Shown here piece by piece: positions 33,441 to 42,859 of a stretch of DNA of 64,000 nucleotides. The first letter of the stretch is position 1; each line of letters opens with the position of its first letter. Under the pieces are notes generated by a model. It saw only the letters and a list, made by a program, of their open reading frames with translations. It ran no database searches and was not told the origin of the DNA. The DNA lies in assembly GCA_965233585.1 (NCBI GenBank), contig CBDDTI010000746.1, positions 256,001 through 320,000 on the forward strand, written 5' to 3'. This stretch comes from a bacterium. Lineage in GTDB: Bacteria > SAR324 > NAC60-12. Made by a program: the position numbers and the translations under genes.

Positions 33441-33555
33441 CTTGATTTGAACTCAGACCAATCCTGTTTGAAAGTAACATTTTTGATGAATATCCTGCAG
33501 AAGAAAGCAAGTGGGAAAGTCTTTAAACTCCAAAAATCCCTTGTCCCTAGCTGAC

Positions 33556-36500
33556 TTAAATCTCTCCACCAACACCTTTGAATTTGTCAACGAAGGCAGA
33601 GATTTTATCAAAAACGGTTTGTTTTTTCGTGTGATATTGCGGATTAAGGGGACTCATTTTGGGTAGTGCTTCGTTGAGTTCTGTGCCATTTTTGCTGGCA
33701 AATTTTCGTTCCAGTGATTTTTTGATGTAACGTTTTGCCGCTGCATCGTTTAGCTCTTCTTCTTTTATCAGTTCGGTTGCTTCTCTTTGCTGTTCTTGTC
33801 GTGCAAAAGTAAAAAATGCTTCAATCATGCTGGCTTTGTCCTCAAATGTTGCAAAATCAGCCTGATGAATGAAGTCAAGTAACAATCCTTCCTTTGATCT
33901 GTGGTCTAGGCTGGAGCTTATCATGCGTTTGACATCTTCAATCAAAGTGTCTTTGCTTTTGGTCTTTTGGTTTTTCTCAAAAATAAGCTCCAAAATATAA
34001 TCAAGGTCAATTTCTTGGGATTTGAGCAAGTCCACTTCAAACACCACATCGTCCCAATCTATCTTAGACTCGTCTTGTTTCTCTGATGCTCTTTCTTTGA
34101 TGAGCCAATCGCGAATGTCGTTATATGTAGAACGATAGTCTTGAATGGTGCGTTCTGACGGCATTTCTATTGTTTGTATGGTGGCAAAATCGTCATCGCT
34201 TAGATGGTGTTGTTTTTTAAATTCTTCTATCTCATCGGGGTTTTTTGTGTCAAGATTTTGCAAGGTTTTAAGGGTAGTAAACTCATCATAATTTTGCAGC
34301 ACATTTTCTAGCCGTAAGTACTCACCAAATAACTTGACAAATTCTTTTTTATCATCTTCTTTGTCAATTTTAGCAGGGTTAGGAAATCGTTCTTGCAAGT
34401 CCTTCACAACGTCTTTAAAACCTCGTGTCACTTGACCTGTTGCAATGTCTTTAAAGCCTTCCATGTATTCCTGATAGCTTTTCTCCAAGATGACTTGCTC
34501 GGTATGACTCCCACTTTTGCCAAATAATTTGATGGCATCTTTCGTGGCTGGTTCTAGGTTGCGAAAGGTGACAATATTGCCAAAGGTTTTGGTGGCATCA
34601 TAAATGCGGTTGGTGCGGGAAAAGGCTTGAATCAAGCCATGAAAACGCAAATTTTTATCTACAAATAAGGTGTTCAAAGTAGGAGCATCAAAGCCTGTTA
34701 AAAACATTCCTACCACGATTAACAAATCCACTTCTTGAGCCTTCACCCGCTTTGCCAAATCGCGATAATAGTTTTGAAATGCTTGGCTCTCTACACTGAA
34801 GCTAGTTTTAAAATATTCGTTATAATCAGCAATGACTTTGCCTAAAAATTCTTTTGCGGTTTGGTCCCTGGTGATTGTCTCAAAGTCCTCATCTGCAATC
34901 TCACCGATGGCATGTTGTTCTTCGTTGGCAGCAAAGGAAAAGATGGTCGCAATTTTTAGTTTCTTATCGCTGTGTTCTTGCAATGTTTGAAAGGTTTCAT
35001 AATACGATTTGGCGGCATCTATACTGCTGACGGCAAACATGGCATTAAAACCTTTGTTATTGCTTTGCAAGCGGTGCGTCTTGTGATGAAAGTTGTTGAG
35101 GACATACTGCGCAATTTCCTTGATACGATTGGGGTGCAAGAATGCTTTTTTGTCCTCTTCTGCAAAAAATTTTTGCTCATCTTGTTCGGTTTCAATCGCT
35201 TTGAACTGGGGGCGGACATCATTGTAATCTACCTTGAATTTAAGCACTTTTTCATCACGAATAGCATCGGTGATGACATAAGAGTGTAGCTCGCAACCAA
35301 ACACGCTTTGTGTTGTCTCTGCACCTGAGGCGTTGTCAAGAAAAATTGGCGTCCCTGTAAAACCGAATTGATAAAATTGCTTAAACTTCTTTCTTAAGTT
35401 TTTCTGTGCCTCACCAAATTGGCTGCGGTGGCATTCGTCAAAAATAAACACCACTTGCTGATTGTACACGGGCAAGCCTGTTTCACCTTTCATCAGGTTG
35501 TTGAGTTTTTGAATGGTGGTGACGATGATTTTATTGTCATCTTTGCTTAAATTGCGTTTGAGTGCAGCAGTGCTGCTTGAACCGTTGACGCTATCAGGTG
35601 AGAATTTTTGATACTCTTTCATAGTCTGATAATCAAGGTCTTTTCTATCCACCACAAAAAACACCTTGTCAATAAAATTTAATGCTGTTGCCAAACGTGC
35701 GGTCTTAAAGCTGGTTAAGGTTTTTCCTGAACCTGTGGTGTGCCAAATGTAGCCTCCACTTCCTGGCTTACAACTATTTTTTGCTTGATACGAGCTTTGA
35801 ATCTTCCACAAAATGCGTTCAGTCGCAGCGATTTGATAGGGACGCATGACAAGCAAAGTTTCGTTTGCATCAAATACCGAATATTTTAATAACACATGAA
35901 GCAGGGTGTTTTTTTGCAAAAAAGTAGCAGTAAAGTCTTTGAGGTCTTTAATCAAAGTATTGTCAGCCCTTGCCCAATTCATGGTAAAGTCAAAGCTGTT
36001 TTTGTCCCGTTTGGTGGTGTTAGCAAAATAGCGGGTATCCGTGCCGTTGGAGATGACAAAAATTTGCAAATACTTATACAAAGAATTGTCGCTGTTGAAA
36101 CTTTCTTTGCTGTAACGATGGACTTGATTAAAGGCTTCGCGAATGGCAACGCCACGTCTTTTTAGCTCCAAATGCACCAAAGGCAAGCCATTAATCAAAA
36201 TCGTCACATCATAGCGGTTGGCATGGCTACCTGTTTGCTCAAATTGTCCAATCACTTGCAACTTATTCTTAGCGAGATTCTTTTTGTCTAGCAAATAAAT
36301 ATTTTTAATATGTCCGTCATCAAAGACAAAATCATAAATATAGTTATCGTGAATTTTACGTGATTTTTCCTCCAAAATATCGCTGGCTTTATCCAGATAT
36401 TGCTCCACAAATCGTTGCCATTCATCATTAGAAAACTGAACGTCATTTAAGTTTTGTAATTGTGTGCGGACATTGGCAAGCATCGCATCAGGGCTTTTGA

Positions 36501-36657
36501 TATTTTTGCAATACTCATAACCTTGATTTTGCAAATCCTGTATCAATTCACGTTCTAAATCTGCCTCAGTTTGATAACTTGTTGACTGTTCTAGTTCGTC
36601 ATATTTATCCAGAACAATAAAATTATTAGATTCTATGATGGGTTTGTAATGATTCAT
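33556..36657 (-). CDS. hsdR: Type I restriction endonuclease R subunit (EcoR124-like, type IC)
   Basis: [50 protein letters not shown]; start MNHYK after GGAG. Confidence 0.96.
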
Positions 36658-36678
36658 AAGATGATCTCCAGTATTTTT

Positions 36679-36820
36679 AACCACAGATAAACACAGATAA
36701 ACACAGATAAGCTTCACAAAAAACACTATTTAATCTGTGTTCATCGTGTTCATCTGTGGTTTATTCTTAATGTTTTATTACATCTTTTTGACCACAGATG
36801 CACTCAAATTAACACAGACA
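36679..36820. repeat. CCACAGAT palindromic unit plus the left arm of the GxxExxY element
   Basis: AACCACAGATAAACACAGATAAACACAGAT...ATCTGTGTTCATCGTGTTCATCTGTGGTT, then a spacer and ACCACAGATGCACTCAAATTAACACAGAC. Confidence 0.9.
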
Positions 36821-36825
36821 GGTTT

Positions 36826-37203
36826 TCACAGAACCATTCTTTTAATCTGTATTTTAGGTGTGCCAAAGTTAATGATTAATCCCAAAGGGAGTTTTGTTGC
36901 TTTAAGATAGTTGAGAAGCTGGGCTTGATGGATATTGTTCAGAGTTTGTACTGCCTTGATTTCAAGAATCACCTGTTGATTGACCAGAATATCAGCAAAG
37001 TATTCACCAACTACTTGACCTTTGTAGGCAATAGTCATCATCTTTTCTTTTTCTGCTTTTAACCCTGCATCTGCTAATTCAATCATCATGGCATTTTGAT
37101 AGACTTTTTCCAAAAAACCTGCTCCAAGCGTGTTTGATACAGTAAAAGCACAACCAATTACCTCCCCCGAAATATCATTTAATCTGTGTTGTTCTGTATT
37201 CAT
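36826..37203 (-). CDS. GxxExxY protein (PD-(D/E)XK nuclease family)
   Basis: LGAGFLEKVY, ADILV...ILEIK, AQLLNYLK...GLIINFG; 125 aa. Confidence 0.95.
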   Translation of the reverse strand: MNTEQHRLNDISGEVIGCAFTVSNTLGAGFLEKVYQNAMMIELADAGLKAEKEKMMTIAYKGQVVGEYFADILVNQQVILEIKAVQTLNNIHQAQLLNYLKATKLPLGLIINFGTPKIQIKRMVL

Positions 37204-37396
37204 CTTTGTTCTTTTTCAATACTTTTTAATCCGTGTTCATCTGTGGTTTATTCTTAATGTTTTATTACGTCTTTTTAACCACAGATGGACTCAGATCAAC
37301 ACAGATAATGTATCACAGAATCTTCTTTTAATCTGCGTTTATCAGTGTTTATCTGTGGTTTTTTCAATACTATTTCATCTGTACTCATTTGTGGTT
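37180..37396. repeat. CCACAGAT palindromic arms: right arm of the GxxExxY element, a miniature unit and extra half-arms
   Basis: Arms at 37180-37210, 37227-37248, 37277-37360 (full hairpin) and 37376-37396. Confidence 0.9.
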
Positions 37397-37404
37397 CTTT
37401 TCAA

Positions 37405-37875
37405 TTAAATAGTAATAAAATTAAGCCGATGATTTTCTTGAATCAAGGATTTCATTGAATGTAAGGCTTGGTCAAATGCTTTTTTGTTTTGCAAAAGGCG
37501 TTGCTGATTGATGGTGTAGCCAGCCACCAAATGCTGTTTAAGAATGCCTGTTGCCCATTGGCGAAACTGCACACCACGTTGAGATTTCACACGATAACCA
37601 ACTGAAATAATCACATCAAGATTGTAATAATCTACTTGGTATATTTTGCCATCTTTGGCAGTTGTTGCATTTTTTGCAACAACTGCGGAACGTTCTAATT
37701 CTTGCTCATTAAGCAGATTTCGCAGATGACGGGATATGACTGATTTATCGTGTTCAAATAATTGCGACATCTGGTCTAGGCTAAGCCATACGGTCTCATT
37801 GTCTAGGGTAACTTTTAGCTCAAGTTGCCCGTCCTTAGATTGATAGATTTGGATTTGTTGTAGGTGGCTAGACAT
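37405..37875 (-). CDS. RhuM-like DNA-binding domain protein, probably 3'-truncated
   Basis: ETVWLS..QM..LF, YNLDVIISVGYRVKSQRGVQFRQWA; ends next to the repeat cluster. Confidence 0.85.
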   Translation of the reverse strand: MSSHLQQIQIYQSKDGQLELKVTLDNETVWLSLDQMSQLFEHDKSVISRHLRNLLNEQELERSAVVAKNATTAKDGKIYQVDYYNLDVIISVGYRVKSQRGVQFRQWATGILKQHLVAGYTINQQRLLQNKKAFDQALHSMKSLIQENHRLNFITI

Positions 37876-37878
37876 GGA

Positions 37879-39444
37879 TTATTTCACTTGGTTGCTGATT
37901 TTGAAATCTAAAAAAGATATATTCTTGCTTTTGAGTTCTTTTAGATATTCTTGACCCTCAGGGATGTTTGATTTGTCACTAGCATGCTCGTATAAAAACA
38001 GCCAAAAGCGATCTTGTTCTCGCTTATCACTTGTTTTTATTTCTTCTACTTTACAGTCAAAAAGACGTGATTTTAATCTAAACTTTTTGGTGTACTTCCA
38101 TGCCAATAGGATAGAGATACAATCATTATATTCTATAACCTTTTCTCTCCATTTCTTAGAAAGTTTACTAATTTTCACTCCATATTTAATTGCAAAATAA
38201 AAACAAAAAGACAAAGCATCAGTCTGTCCCCTTTCTATGGACTGACGAAACAATAAGGGTAGGAAAACTTTGATTGACTGTTGTTGATTGCTAGCAAAAA
38301 TCAAAACAAACCCTTCTAGTAATGGAATCAAATACGGATACAATAAAGACAAAGAAAGGATTTTCTTAACATATAATTTTTTCGCTCTGTCGGACAGACT
38401 CTTTTTAGAGATAACTTTAATGGCGTAATTAACTGGGGCAAAGTCATCATAGTCTTTGGCTATTGAGATAGCTAAGTTTAAGTAAGCATTTATTGAATTA
38501 AAACCTATTTTCTCTTTATCTGGAAAATTAAATTGATTGAGTTTTTGAGTCCATACACTCTCGTGATATTCAATAAGAGTGCAAATTGAAGTTTTCTTTT
38601 GGTTAAGTAGTAACTCATACTCCTTTAAAGCTAACTCCAATGTTTTAAGAAAGTTGTTAGCATTGTTCTCATCTTCAGCAAAATAAGTATAGTCATCAAT
38701 ATAGCGAATAACTTTTTTAAACCCCTTTTCTTGTAAGATATAATCTACAGAAGTTAGGATTATTTCAGAAACAATATTTGACGTGTGAGGGCCGATTAAA
38801 AGCCCATTAGTCTGTGAGTCGTTACAGTTTCTCACATCTCTATCCAAATTATTTGACCAGTGTGATTTTTCATCTTTGTTTTTTCTATTAGTTGGAAATC
38901 GTTTTTCTTTAGCTTCGTCTTTTCCTTGTATTGCCCAAGGAATTGAGTGGGTATAAATACTTGGAAAGCAAGTTGAAATATCTGCCTTCACTACATATTC
39001 GCAACCTAAGCAATAATCTTGTTCACACTCTTCTTTTTTCCACTTTTCCCACCCTTCATAACTCATTTCAAAAATATGCTTCTTACCTTTAATTTTTCTA
39101 ACATGGCAAAAATTGAATTTAGTTTTTGGCTTGCCTATGTGTTCATTAATAGATGTCCAATATTTTTCAATTGTTTTACACAAGTGCATGTGAGATTCTG
39201 GGTGAGGTATTGCTAATTGTCTGGAAATGCCTTTATTTCTGGTTGCCATATATGAAATGCTTGCATGCGCACAACGTTTAGAACCATTAGTCTTAAAATC
39301 AAAATCTAGTAAAAAATTTGATGAAAAACAGGGGGGTAGTTTATCGGCAAACATACCATATCCTAGCAATGCTGTATAGACATCTTCGGCATCTATAAGA
39401 TCAATATATGCTAGAGAGAAAATACTTATACCTTTATAGTTCAT
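37879..39444 (-). CDS. Reverse transcriptase, Abi/UG (DRT-like, candidate DRT4) with helical C-terminal domain
   Basis: [42 protein letters not shown], catalytic RYIDD, LNQKKT; visibly AT-richer than the flanks. Confidence 0.9.
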
Positions 39445-39519
39445 TAATAAATTACGATAATATTCATATTGCTTTTGTCTTAGCTCAATCTCACGCGGTA
39501 GCCCTTCGCTGATGCTATT
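39442..39519 (-). pseudogene. Duplicated hsdS 3' segment, in frame with the RT
   Basis: Reads [26 protein letters not shown], the same as the HsdS C-terminus at about 39698-39775. Confidence 0.9.
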
Positions 39520-39520
39520 T

Positions 39521-39674
39521 TTGTTTATCTGTGGCTTTTTCCTAATGCTTTATTACGTCTTTTTGACCACAGATAAACACAAAAAACACAGATGATGCGT
39601 CACAGAATCTTTTTTAATCAGTGTTCATCTATGTTCATCGGTGGTTAAAAAATCATCTACTTTCATCTGTGGTT
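39521..39674. repeat. CCACAGAT palindromic arms between hsdS and the RT
   Basis: Half-arm 39521-39535, hairpin 39566-39646, half-arm 39654-39674 overlapping the hsdS stop. Confidence 0.9.
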
Positions 39675-40912
39675 ACTTCCTCTGGTTTTGGAAAGCTCAT
39701 CAATAAATTACGATAATATTCATATTGCTTTTGACGCAATTCAATCTCACGCGGTAGTCCTTCGCTGATGCTATTGCTCAAAGTGTCAAATCGGTCAAGA
39801 ATGTCAACAATCTTTTGCTGAATTTGCAACGATTTTTCTGGGTTGTCGGGGCAGGGGATTGGAAATTTAGTATCTTTAATCATCGGTTTAGTGAGCTGGG
39901 GAATGCCCGCCTCTGGCACCTTATAATTTTTCTCAATAGTTTTCATAAAATAATAAGCATACTTCAAATTTATGTTGATTTTTGGAGTTAGCACTAACAA
40001 ACGAATTATTGGAAAAATAGGATAATCTCTGTAACTTGTCCAACCTATCGTACCTCTAGCTGATATAGTTAAACTTGGCTCATTCAACTTTGCTTCTTTT
40101 GTCCATCCATATAATGATTTCTCACCTATTCCGTTAGATAAAATAGGCACATTAAACTGCTCTGTTTCTATATCTGAAAATGCGTCTTTTGGTTTATCGC
40201 CACCAGCAAAGATACTAAAAACCTCCCCCAATGTTTTCCATTCTACCCTTGCACCGTCTAGTAGTTTTTGTAAAAAGGGTATCTGTGTTAATCCGTGTTT
40301 ATTTGTGGTTGAAAAATCTAATAATCTATCGCGATAATAACTATACTGCTTTTTACGTGCTGTAAGCTCTGCTGTAAGCTCTGCTGTAAGCTCTGCTGTA
40401 AGCGTAGTGAACTTATCCAAAATGTCAACTATTTTTTGCTGAATTTGTAAAGATTTTTCTGGATTTTCTGGGCAGGGAATTGGGATTTTTATTTTTTCTA
40501 CCTGATGGCTCATCAATTTTGGATTACCCATTCCAGAATAAACATGTTTTTGTGCTTCAATTGAAAGCCAGTAGAACAAAAATTTATAATTTAAAATAGA
40601 GATACTATCAATCTTTATTAAACCACAGACATTTGTAATAGAAAATTTTTCATTGCGGTAAAAAACAGTTCCTGCGTTTGCTCCATCCGTTGTCCATGTT
40701 ACAAATTCACCTTCGAAATCAAATGTGTTAATTTTACCTATCATTCCATTATTTGCTGTTTGTGAACTATAAACAGGATAGTTACCAGCATTATCAGTTA
40801 AATAACTTTTTGACATTACACGCCCCCTTTTTAAATCACAAACCTCTCCCAATGTTTTCCATTCTACCTTTGCGCCGTTGAGTAGGTTTTGTAAAAAGAT
40901 TTGTTTATTCAT
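39653..40912 (-). CDS. hsdS: Type I R-M specificity subunit (type IC)
   Basis: Two TRDs each starting [13 protein letters not shown] repeats, [17 protein letters not shown]. Confidence 0.95.
40359..40403. repeat. 12-bp tandem repeat encoding TAEL in hsdS
   Basis: GCTGTAAGCTCT three times plus a partial copy. Confidence 0.95.
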
Positions 40913-41894
40913 CGTGATTGATATTGTGTTTTTGCATGATGATAGATGCCATTAATTCTTCTTCAGTAGGTAAAATAGTTTGGTATTTTGAAGCGAATAG
41001 TTGTTTATTTTCTTTCAGTATAGAGTATTTAACGATGGTTTCGTCTTTACTGGCACATAGTATGATTCCAATACTTGGATTATCATCTTTGTTTCTTTTT
41101 AAGTCATCAAACATGCGTACATACATGTCCATTTGCCCAATATCTTGGTGAGTAAGTTTGGTTGTTTTAAGGTCTATCACAACAAAGCATTTTAACAAAT
41201 AATTGTAAAACACAAGGTCAATATAAAAGTGAGATGTTTCGGTGCTAATTCTCATTTGTTGAGCAACAAAAGAAAATCCTTTGCCCATTTCAAGTAAAAA
41301 CTCTTTTAGTTCATCAATAATGGCTTGTTCCAATGCGGATTCTTGCAGTTTTATCTGTTCAGGTAATTGCAAAAATTCCAAGACATAAGGGTCTTTGATA
41401 AAATCAAGTAGCTGTTCGTTTTTAGAAGATTTTTTTACTTTCTGTGTTGAAAGCAGTCGGGCGTAATAATTTGATTTGATATTGCGTTCTAGTTGGCGAA
41501 CGCTCCAATTTTCTGTGCGGCTTTCTTTGCAATAATATTCAACGGTTTTCGCATCATCTATACGCATAATTAACCTGAGGTGGCTCCAACTTAATTCTCT
41601 ACACAGTGTGTAGAGTTTTTCTTGGTGTGGAAATTTGAGGTAAAACTGTCTGCAATTATAAAGATTTGCATAAGAAAACCCCTTGCCAAAATCAAATTTC
41701 AAAGCACTTGAAAGCTCTTCCATAAGCCGTTTGCCATACTTTGCCTTGCTTTCACCATTTTGCTCTTCTACTACTATCCTTTTGCCTATTAACCAATACG
41801 CTTCAACCATAGCAGCATTGATAGCCGAACGCGTTTTGGATCTTGCATTTTGCAAAATACTTTTTATATCAGCGTAAAAATCTTTATTGATCAT
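40905..41894 (-). CDS. YhcG/DUF1016 PD-(D/E)XK nuclease-domain protein
   Basis: [48 protein letters not shown]. Confidence 0.93.
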
Positions 41895-41896
41895 GT

Positions 41897-42048
41897 TTAA
41901 AGCTCCTGTGTTTTAAATTCGCTGTAGCCTTCATAGTAATAGCTGACGTCAATGCCTTTCATAAAGAGGTTTCGGTCATGGATTTGGTTGGTGAGTGCAT
42001 CTTTGAGCAGTGTTTTGATTTCAAGGTCTTTGACGGGGCTTCGTTGCA
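41897..42048 (-). pseudogene. 3' remnant of a Fic-family (adenylyltransferase-like) gene cut by IS1
   Basis: QRSPVKDLEIKTLLKDALT...FMKGIDVSYYYEGY resembles the C-terminus of Fic proteins found in type I R-M loci; abuts the IS end. Confidence 0.7.
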
Positions 42049-42056
42049 GGCAGTGT

Positions 42057-42444
42057 TCACTTGATATTGTCATGATATTTTTCAAACCTTTTATAGTCAA
42101 AGAAGAGTTGTAGAGAGTGTTCCAGCATGTCAAAAGTTTTGGAATGTCGTTTAGATTTTCTCATCAAGCGAGCTAGGTTATCTCTGATGGAAGAATTAGA
42201 AGATTCAATGAGATGAGTGTTGTCTTTGCCTATCTGATGCTTTTGTGGAATTTGGAGTTGTGCAAATGCCACTTGATAGCATGAGTTGGCATCTGTATAA
42301 ATCGTTTCAATTCTAGCTCGTTGTGCTTTGACTAGTGCATACAGCTGCTTTGCTGCTGCTAATCCTTTGCCTATCACAAAGGCAATCACACATTGTTCTT
42401 GACGAGAATAGGCTGTCCAAACAGCTACTCTTTGGCTTTTTTTT
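42057..42444 (-). CDS. insB: IS1 InsB-like DDE ORF reached by -1 frameshift
   Basis: A8 slippery run at 42437-42444; the -1 frame reads VWTAYSR...IYTD...THLIESSNSSIR. Confidence 0.85.
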
Positions 42445-42772
42445 GAACAAAAGTGTAGATCTCATCCATCTCTATACTATCTACTTGTGCATGGAAACTT
42501 GGTGCGTCTTTTGGAAGTTGAGACACTCTAGCTTTTTTGATCCAGTTGACAATTGAAGCGGGAGACACCTGCAAAAAACGAGCGATCTTTCTGATGCCTA
42601 CACTATTGACATACATCTCTGAGGCTTGACGCTTGGTCTCTAGTGGGATTCTCAAACCATTTGAGGTGAATGCTCTCTGACATGACTTGCAACGATACCT
42701 CTGAACCCCTTTGTAACTTCCATTCTTGATATAAGTCTGACTCCCACAATGATGACAACTTCTCATTTCCAT
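42425..42772 (-). CDS. insA: IS1 InsA-like ORF (zinc finger plus HTH)
   Basis: CHHC...KNG...QRYRCKSC, GIRKIAR, EMDEIYTFV. Confidence 0.9.
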   Translation of the reverse strand: MEMRSCHHCGSQTYIKNGSYKGVQRYRCKSCQRAFTSNGLRIPLETKRQASEMYVNSVGIRKIARFLQVSPASIVNWIKKARVSQLPKDAPSFHAQVDSIEMDEIYTFVQKKAKE

Positions 42773-42859
42773 TCCTCAAATTCACTCTCACATGCAATGA
42801 CAATACCAACTAAACACTGCCCTGCTAAGGGGGGTCAAGTGAAGAAATTAGGAAAAAAG

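Follow-up and report, generated by a model that had tools for sequence, protein, structure and literature searches.

We examined a 64,000-nucleotide (nt) window of the genome of an uncultured SAR324 bacterium (NCBI GenBank assembly GCA_965233585.1, contig CBDDTI010000746.1, positions 256,001 to 320,000 of the forward strand; coordinates below are those of the window unless another record is named). Its minus strand carries the co-oriented genes yhcG-hsdS-RT-rhuM-GxxExxY-hsdR, in which a reverse transcriptase (RT) gene stands among type I restriction-modification (R-M) genes. A preliminary description, made from the letters of the sequence, had read this gene order as Pfam, PADLOC, and NCBIfam now confirm it, and had proposed that the RT is a ‘DRT4-like or new stand-alone’ anti-phage enzyme carried as cargo in a type I R-M operon. 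The locus represents one more DRT4 gene, in an insertion sequence (IS)-rich, 12-megabase (Mb) genome.

The reverse transcriptase and its family

37879..39444, minus strand: DRT4/UG15-family reverse transcriptase, 521 amino acids (aa), identified from the open reading frame (ORF) translation, Pfam, PADLOC, NCBIfam, and predicted fold

The ORF begins with ATG and is intact, with neither stop nor frameshift, as the preliminary description had reported without naming the (minus) strand. Its translation carries the motifs quoted there (an 18-residue motif at residues 154–171, GLLIGP at 214–219, and RYIDDY at 247–252) and lacks VTG; RVT_1 is the sole Pfam domain (E-value 4e-11, residues 143–294), with no maturase or endonuclease domain among the Pfam matches, again as described. 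Logan contigs from three samples in two studies, one of which samples may be the source of the assembly, cover the RT without a single differing letter.

Several comparisons assign the RT to one family. A PADLOC run, as the preliminary description had suggested, gave the Drt4 model PDLC02178 as the best match (E-value 8.6e-155, 514.5 bits), nearly end to end (RT residues 12–516 against model positions 7–504 of 506); the runner-up kind was Drt6, at 336.6 bits. Among NCBIfam models the Drt4 equivalog NF041749 ranks first, with 383.7 bits against a cut-off of 450 bits. Since the bounds of that equivalog are set tightly about the E. coli type, we file the RT under DRT4 as PADLOC and the UG15 class draw the family, outside the NCBI equivalog. 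A phmmer search of the PDB placed DRT4/UG15 chains on top (E-values 4.5e-49 to 6.8e-49; RT residues 34–512 against chain residues 28–503), followed by DRT6 (3.3e-28), Drt3b, Abi-P2, and AbiK (5e-14).

The predicted structure agrees. An AlphaFold2 model built on 40 homologues (predicted local distance difference test score 88.8, predicted template modeling score 0.88) has a helical C-terminal half, as had been anticipated, and its fold is predicted to be an RT followed by a C-terminal alpha-repeat, like that of solved DRT4. Foldseek returned the UG15/DRT4 structures 9l9s, 9vdo, and 9vdv first (E-values of about 3e-27, template modeling [TM] scores of 0.77–0.82, 28–29% identity), then DRT6 (TM 0.81–0.85), AbiK, and Abi-P2. 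A grouping with group II intron or retron RTs, named in the preliminary description as the contrary outcome, was not seen: these RTs reached TM scores of at most 0.5 (normalized to the query), against 0.77–0.82 for DRT4. With DRT6/UG12 (PDB 9wy8) the modeled RT shares its overall fold and a hexamer-forming class, but its sequence is nearer to DRT4 in both the PADLOC scores and the PDB search (3.3e-28 vs about 5e-49).

The E. coli DRT4 enzyme provides the functional reference. It is a dimer-of-trimers hexamer (PMC12783706; 10.64898/2026.10.21.760695; 10.64898/2026.10.27.754916) that primes on Tyr125 and makes untemplated single-stranded DNA (ssDNA) through D149, D240, and D241 (three DRT4 papers, including PMC12783706). 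Its triggers are phage proteins resembling single-stranded DNA-binding protein (SSB) and dNTPs (three DRT4 papers, including 10.64898/2026.10.21.760695), and its RNase site consists of H160 and D192 (10.64898/2026.10.21.760695). Taking residue numbers from PMC12783706 and 10.64898/2026.10.21.760695 and mapping them through the phmmer alignment, we found the priming tyrosine of the palm at Y129 of the RT (in a low-confidence loop of the AlphaFold2 model, residues 128–130), the polymerase residues D149, Y238, D240, and D241 at D155, Y248, D250, and D251, and the RNase pair at H166 and D201. In an alignment of the window RT with the RTs of 81 related loci, D155, H166, D201, D250, and D251 are kept in 82/82 and Y129 in 80/82; the known catalytic residues are also invariant in 40 database homologues. 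The tyrosine of YxDD is present in the window RT, yet in only 5 of the 82, with His or Asn in most relatives.

The top-scoring family model and the fold agree with the full set of known catalytic residues, and we therefore assign the RT to DRT4/UG15. Judged by its sequence and modeled structure, the ORF is an intact member of this defense family and not a group II intron or retron RT. It shares with the E. coli enzyme (PDB 9vdo, 9vdv, 9l9s, 21ou) an RT palm with an alpha-helical-repeat fold, the palm priming tyrosine, the aspartate triad, the His/Asp RNase pair, and organization as a single gene of about 520–540 aa. It differs in its 28–29% identity, its score below the NCBIfam equivalog cut-off, a shorter finger loop, the lack of an equivalent of residues 508–540, and its embedding in a type I R-M operon.

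The conserved RNase pair bears on how such an enzyme would kill. A Class 1 UG/Abi polymerase could act through its DNA product alone, with no RNase step, as was first proposed for DRT4, DRT6, and AbiK; accumulation of toxic ssDNA has been put forward as the killing step (PMC12783706), and the DRT6 model and structure also match the window RT well. However, equivalents of the RNase pair in all 82 RTs would be hard to explain if the site were idle, and the Drt4 model outscores the Drt6 model by a wide margin. We consider action through DNA alone highly improbable for this RT.

The gene cluster and its break

The other genes and features of the cluster are as follows.

33556..36726, minus strand: hsdR, EcoR124-type (type IC-like), with all domains (HSDR_N, SF2 motor, EcoR124_C; TIGR00348, 662 bits)
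36671..36842, no strand assigned: palindromic repeat copy 3, in the GxxExxY-hsdR spacer, folds into a long hairpin
36826..37203, minus strand: GxxExxY/PDDEXK_3 protein, 125 aa (Pfam, NCBIfam)
37215..37365, no strand assigned: palindromic repeat copy 2, in the spacer between the short rhuM (rhuM') and GxxExxY
37405..37875, minus strand: short RhuM-family protein, 156 aa (Pfam; PADLOC PDC-S05/S23)
39441..39519, minus strand: 79-nt remnant of another hsdS 3' end, 91% identical (7 mismatches) to the resident hsdS 3' end
39520..39651, no strand assigned: palindromic repeat copy 1, in the hsdS-RT spacer
39653..40912, minus strand: hsdS, two target-recognition domains (Pfam, PADLOC)
40905..41894, minus strand: YhcG/DUF1016 PD-(D/E)XK protein, PADLOC candidate PDC-S02, overlapping hsdS by 8 nt
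41897..42047, minus strand: 3' remnant of a class III-type fic gene, 151 nt between the IS and yhcG (NmFic positions 138–177 of 177, E-value 1.9e-15)
42048..42823, no strand assigned: IS1-family insertion sequence, about 776 bp, two ORFs of 115 and 110 aa (Pfam, alignment)

With the HsdR domains and two HsdS recognition domains present, the R-M genes are, by sequence, of the EcoR124-like (IC) type I kind. The neighbor called rhuM in the preliminary description does belong to the RhuM family, but only its N-terminal part is there (Pfam positions 1–86 of 252); several short PADLOC PDC-S05 models are matched end to end, and the gene begins 3 nt past the RT stop codon. The island has a GC content of 0.33–0.36, compared with 0.40–0.44 around it. 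Housekeeping genes border it, with those for an ABC transporter and a Bmp-type binding protein at one end and those for SDR, UbiE, and ketol-acid reductoisomerase at the other.

Upstream of the RT a trace of an earlier neighbor remains. The 79-nt hsdS remnant extends through the RT start codon, and is in frame with the RT, although stop codons stand ahead of it. Because this remnant adjoins the RT start, the RT must at one time have stood next to a different hsdS allele, in keeping with exchange through recombination within the conserved 3' region of hsdS.

The description of the setting as a type I R-M operon holds for the cargo between hsdS and hsdR but not for the methyltransferase gene. 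A single strong type I hsdM is found in the genome, about 65 kb from hsdS and on the plus strand (G000:C746:362150-363613; TIGR00497, 587 bits). Next come a full-length rhuM, a 110-aa ORF, and a fic gene interrupted by an IS1-family element; the RT cluster is bounded upstream by the element at 42048–42823, which separates it from hsdM-rhuM-orf110-fic5'. The IS copy beside the hsdM-side fic (L010 13596-14372) and that in the window align over 777 nt at 99.5% identity; the genome holds 27 further near-full-length copies (85–100% identity), and contig depth over the element is about 20-fold that of its flanks. Logan contigs break at local repeats and at the IS.

The two pieces of fic indicate that these parts belong together. 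The 5' part (L010 13128-13595) covers NmFic profile positions 2–141 of 177 and complements the 3' remnant in the window; at the IS joints there is a 7-nt duplication, and the reading frame continues across the two pieces. Since fic is split by the IS and its joint is in frame, the hsdM side was once contiguous with the RT cluster, and the sequence gives the ancestral operon as hsdM-rhuM-orf110-fic-yhcG-hsdS-RT-rhuM'-GxxExxY-hsdR. A simple split by one IS, with one insertion and one recombination, is ruled out: the two fic halves meet the IS at the same one of its ends and the IS copies are co-oriented, a layout that takes at least two events. The catalytic motif HPFREGNGRTTR is retained in the 5' part, and the 3' remnant has an SxxxEG motif that we take to be the auto-inhibitory helix of class III-type Fic; the Fic catalytic core is thus now apart from its presumed inhibitor.

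Such damage raises the question of whether the RT is a silent relic, its ORF intact but the island decaying and the gene no longer expressed or useful in this host. The splitting of the operon, which has left hsdM, the full rhuM, and the 5' part of fic on the opposite strand at a distance of 65 kb, points that way, as does the abundance of the IS1-family element in the genome. Against it, the RT has no stop or frameshift and keeps every catalytic residue, hsdS, hsdR, and yhcG are also full length, and the RT sequence is identical in contigs of three samples. We regard a silent relic as unlikely.

Related loci and the relation to restriction

The preliminary description had also suggested a survey of homolog neighborhoods for hsd genes. 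From 591 candidate stretches, an alignment-based scan of metagenome contigs gave at least 427 relatives, and we retained the best 80; together with two loci from a single-protein scan of genome contigs they make up a survey of 82 loci. Hsd genes were called with custom hidden Markov models, and 77 of 81 candidates were checked by Pfam, which confirmed all but six (left out were three duplicates, in L050, of L049 candidates and one ORF that is the partial RT itself). Four large ‘HsdM’ matches were rejected as such, being Eco57I/MmeI-type methyltransferases by Pfam. When remnants were sought with tblastn, L074 (an hsdS remnant) joined the list, as did L034 and L054 (both with the large methyltransferase). 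The loci divide as follows.

RT co-oriented between hsdS/hsdM and hsdR: 17/82 loci
hsdS/hsdM upstream, downstream flank too short or unverified (one a remnant): 6/82 loci
Only hsdR, downstream: 1/82 loci
Other arrangement with type I genes: 7/82 loci
Large Eco57I/MmeI-type methyltransferase directly upstream: 6/82 loci
RT after a type III mod-res pair: 1/82 loci
No R-M gene seen, many contigs short: 44/82 loci

Where at least 1.5 kb is available on both sides, the RT is embedded in 14 of 39 loci, or in 11 of 30 clusters after clustering of the RTs at 90% identity. About one third of the informative DRT4 loci in this sample thus have the RT inside a type I R-M operon, in most cases as the final gene ahead of hsdR, a frequency we did not find stated for DRT4 in the literature searched. 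The partner HsdR proteins fall into three families (EcoEI_R_C, T1RH-like_C, and EcoR124_C), and PDLC02178 was the best PADLOC model for all of the 15 metagenome-locus RTs sampled. On a quick maximum likelihood tree of 62 dereplicated RTs, with support from the Shimodaira–Hasegawa-like approximate likelihood ratio test only, the embedded state needs at least seven changes across well-supported branches, a number inflated by short contigs labeled ‘none’. In the same tree the window RT groups, with 97% support, with four RTs that are not hsd-linked.

The hsdS-hsdR slot is therefore a recurring home of the DRT4 family. The RT is DRT4-like cargo, as proposed, but not new, since PADLOC already models the short form and the slot is recurrent. 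The preliminary description had reasoned that a canonical DRT4 with no hsd linkage would leave nothing novel; the RT is DRT4, but the linkage is real and widespread, and the case in the window is therefore ordinary, not novel.

Linkage to hsd genes is, at the same time, not universal in the family. Of the loci with no R-M gene, 14 were inspected: they are found within polysaccharide-synthesis clusters, next to OLD/UvrD, GmrSD, AbiEii, or Schlafen-type genes, close to a Tn7-like element, or amid housekeeping genes. A near-full-length Drt4 match occurred in only 4 of 401 Bacteroidota genomes, with hsd genes nearby in none of the four; a further match in that sample, in G192, is UG14, not DRT4, and was excluded. 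No full-length Drt4 copy was found among 60 relatives of the host, where one other, partial, match was seen. A tblastn search of annotated plasmids returned one record at 80% cover or more, with 25% identity, from which no gene context was gained.

Other features of these loci were recorded alongside. The Eco57I/MmeI-type methyltransferase gene (encoding about 800–1250 aa) directly upstream of and co-oriented with the RT in L032, L034, L039, L054, L072, and L076 is a second recurring partner. Gut-type DRT4 RTs (L011, L058, L060, L077, L079) lie inside polysaccharide-biosynthesis clusters with glycosyltransferases, a DegT aminotransferase, and a flippase, and in L011 the RT adjoins a 1058-aa SIR2_2 protein. 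Two other Drt4-model matches have in-frame stops (TAA in G279:C1:948498-950021 and TAG in the partial G020:C77:154-894) and are probably decayed copies.

Embedding of defense genes between hsdS and hsdR is already known. DarTG2 of enteropathogenic E. coli occupies this position, which its authors call a potential recombination hotspot (PMC12255303), as does TgvAB in Vibrio cholerae VPI-2 (PMC11411939), and defense genes embedded in type I R-M systems have been sought by ‘guilt by embedding’ (Payne et al., 2024, 10.1101/2024.01.29.577857). Mestre et al. treated ‘operonization with a type I R-M system’ as an indicator of defense function. The window shares with DarTG2, TgvAB, and the ‘guilt by embedding’ systems the hsdS-hsdR slot and stacked, co-inherited defenses, and differs in that its cargo is a DRT4 RT. 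Its YhcG and RhuM match the PADLOC candidate models PDC-S02, PDC-S05, and PDC-S23, which presumably came from the embedding screen. The main text of the DarTG2, TgvAB, and Payne et al. papers, as far as it was available, does not name DRT4 as a frequent embedded cargo, though supplements may list it; no literature linking DRT4 by name to hsd genes was found in a search that covered text other than supplements; and the available text of the three E. coli DRT4 papers does not contain the word ‘restriction’.

We consider it likely that the RT is a stand-alone abortive-infection DRT4/UG15 enzyme, a swappable cargo of the type I R-M operon that is mechanistically independent of it. Its family, fold, every known catalytic residue, gene order, recurrence in the slot, and earlier abutment to hsdS are directly supported; what we infer is that it is enzymatically active and expressed, how it is triggered, and that it acts independently of the R-M enzyme. 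By analogy, the RT most likely works as E. coli DRT4 does: with Tyr129 as its own primer, it would synthesize untemplated ssDNA through the palm residues D155, D250, and D251; phage infection, through phage SSB bound to ssDNA and a rise in dNTPs, would switch on the RNase site H166/D201, and the activated RNase would stop the infected cell. The gene would sit in the hsdS-hsdR gap of a horizontally acquired EcoR124-like operon beside other cargo (YhcG, the short RhuM, and GxxExxY), with the R-M and RT defenses stacked and co-inherited but with no mechanistic dependence on each other.

Several findings weigh against this interpretation. The first is the NF041749 score below its cut-off. In addition, the finger loop that holds E. 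coli Q23–S26 is six residues shorter in the RT (phmmer alignment), and the RT lacks the E. coli subdomain at 508–540, having just nine residues past the equivalent of E. coli position 503. The upstream part of the operon has been lost to the IS, so a promoter is not assured; a promoter and terminator scan gave counts no different from those of shuffled sequence (29 promoter sites against 27.4 expected) and is uninformative on this point. Finally, 16 of the 17 embedded loci have the RT stop either overlapping the hsdR start or at most 25 nt from it, which would also fit a functional tie; the hsdS-RT junction is likewise overlapping or within 25 nt in 11 of the 17.

The missing subdomain matters most for the trigger. 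In E. coli DRT4 the flexible C-terminal subdomain 508–540 is needed for defense and for recognizing one SSB (10.64898/2026.10.21.760695), and the 38-aa deletion of Mestre et al. supports its need for defense. Among the 82 relatives the C-terminal tails range from 0 to 37 aa and are mostly short, so by sequence this subdomain belongs to the E. coli type and not to the whole DRT4 family. Because the RT is without the SSB-recognizing subdomain, its trigger recognition probably differs in detail from that of E. coli DRT4. The C-terminal sensor studied in E. coli is missing from the majority of the family, and trigger recognition in the family is therefore not settled.

A functional tie to the restriction enzyme has a precedent in PrrC, an anticodon nuclease in the type Ic locus EcoprrI, whose gene prrC lies in the hsdS-hsdR slot; EcoprrI holds PrrC silent, and phage anti-restriction proteins release it. 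The preliminary description had likewise raised the possibility of a guard, and by this model the RT would be wired to the type I enzyme, kept silent by the R-M complex, and freed when phage anti-restriction proteins act. The RT occupies the same slot, the close junctions with hsdR and the recurrence with three HsdR families would suit such wiring, and Payne et al. (2024, 10.1101/2024.01.29.577857) label PrrC as almost exclusively embedded in type I R-M systems. DRT4 is also, like PrrC, an RNase whose activation involves dNTPs (10.64898/2026.10.27.754916), and in a short form without the SSB-recognizing subdomain another sensor is conceivable.

The resemblance to PrrC is one of position: both would be abortive-infection RNases encoded between hsdS and hsdR (the window RT by analogy), but there is no sequence or domain relationship, Pfam giving RVT_1 alone in the RT. 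The phage plaque screen of E. coli DRT4 was done in an R-M-deleted host (10.64898/2026.10.21.760695), many close relatives lie far from hsd genes (in polysaccharide loci, beside Gabija-like or GmrSD neighbors, or among housekeeping genes), and in the window two genes stand between the RT and hsdR and hsdM is 65 kb away. We found no evidence for a guard role beyond position, and give it a very small chance. A broader version, in which slot-dwelling DRT4 forms without the SSB-recognizing subdomain are wired to the type I enzyme like PrrC, the R-M complex or its inhibition gates the RNase, and the spacer repeats mark cassette joints or control units, is hardly likely. The embedded DRT4 loci nevertheless form a natural set in which to ask whether restriction and an abortive RT merely stack or cooperate.

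Spacer repeats and minor features

All three cargo spacers contain a palindromic unit of about 100–150 nt built of a 16-nt motif in both orientations; it is present in the spacer upstream of the RT and also in two spacers that do not adjoin the RT. The motif has 10 matches in the window against 0.08 expected, nine of them inside the three spacers, and one copy of the repeat folds at −55.4 kcal/mol (z −6.6). No copy was found in the rest of the 12-Mb genome, in 123 other loci, or in 87 other genomes of the phylum. A looser repeat pattern gave 22 matches in viral contigs and was dropped, this number being about chance for 19 specified bases with a 31-step gap (rough estimate). Rfam reported no family at threshold at the RT locus, the spacer hairpin giving only sub-threshold matches to microRNA hairpins. 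The repeats are candidate recombination joints, operators, or RNA-processing hairpins.

The repeat next to hsdR also affects the annotation of that gene. The listed GTG start at 36726 lies inside the repeat, and the likely start is the ATG at 36657, behind GGAG, giving a protein of about 1033 aa. Just upstream of this likely ribosome-binding site, ACACAGATAA occurs three times in the repeat at 10-bp spacing.

The central region of hsdS contains, at 40358–40403, a perfect tandem repeat of 12 bp in 3.8 copies that encodes repeated TAEL. In EcoR124-type enzymes the copy number of this repeat sets the length of the spacer in the recognition site. Contigs from public runs diverge from the window at 33465–33509, 35361, and 41637 (loose ends of at most 255 nt, in two or three runs each), which suggests that parts of hsdR and yhcG have paralogous copies or are joined in more than one way.

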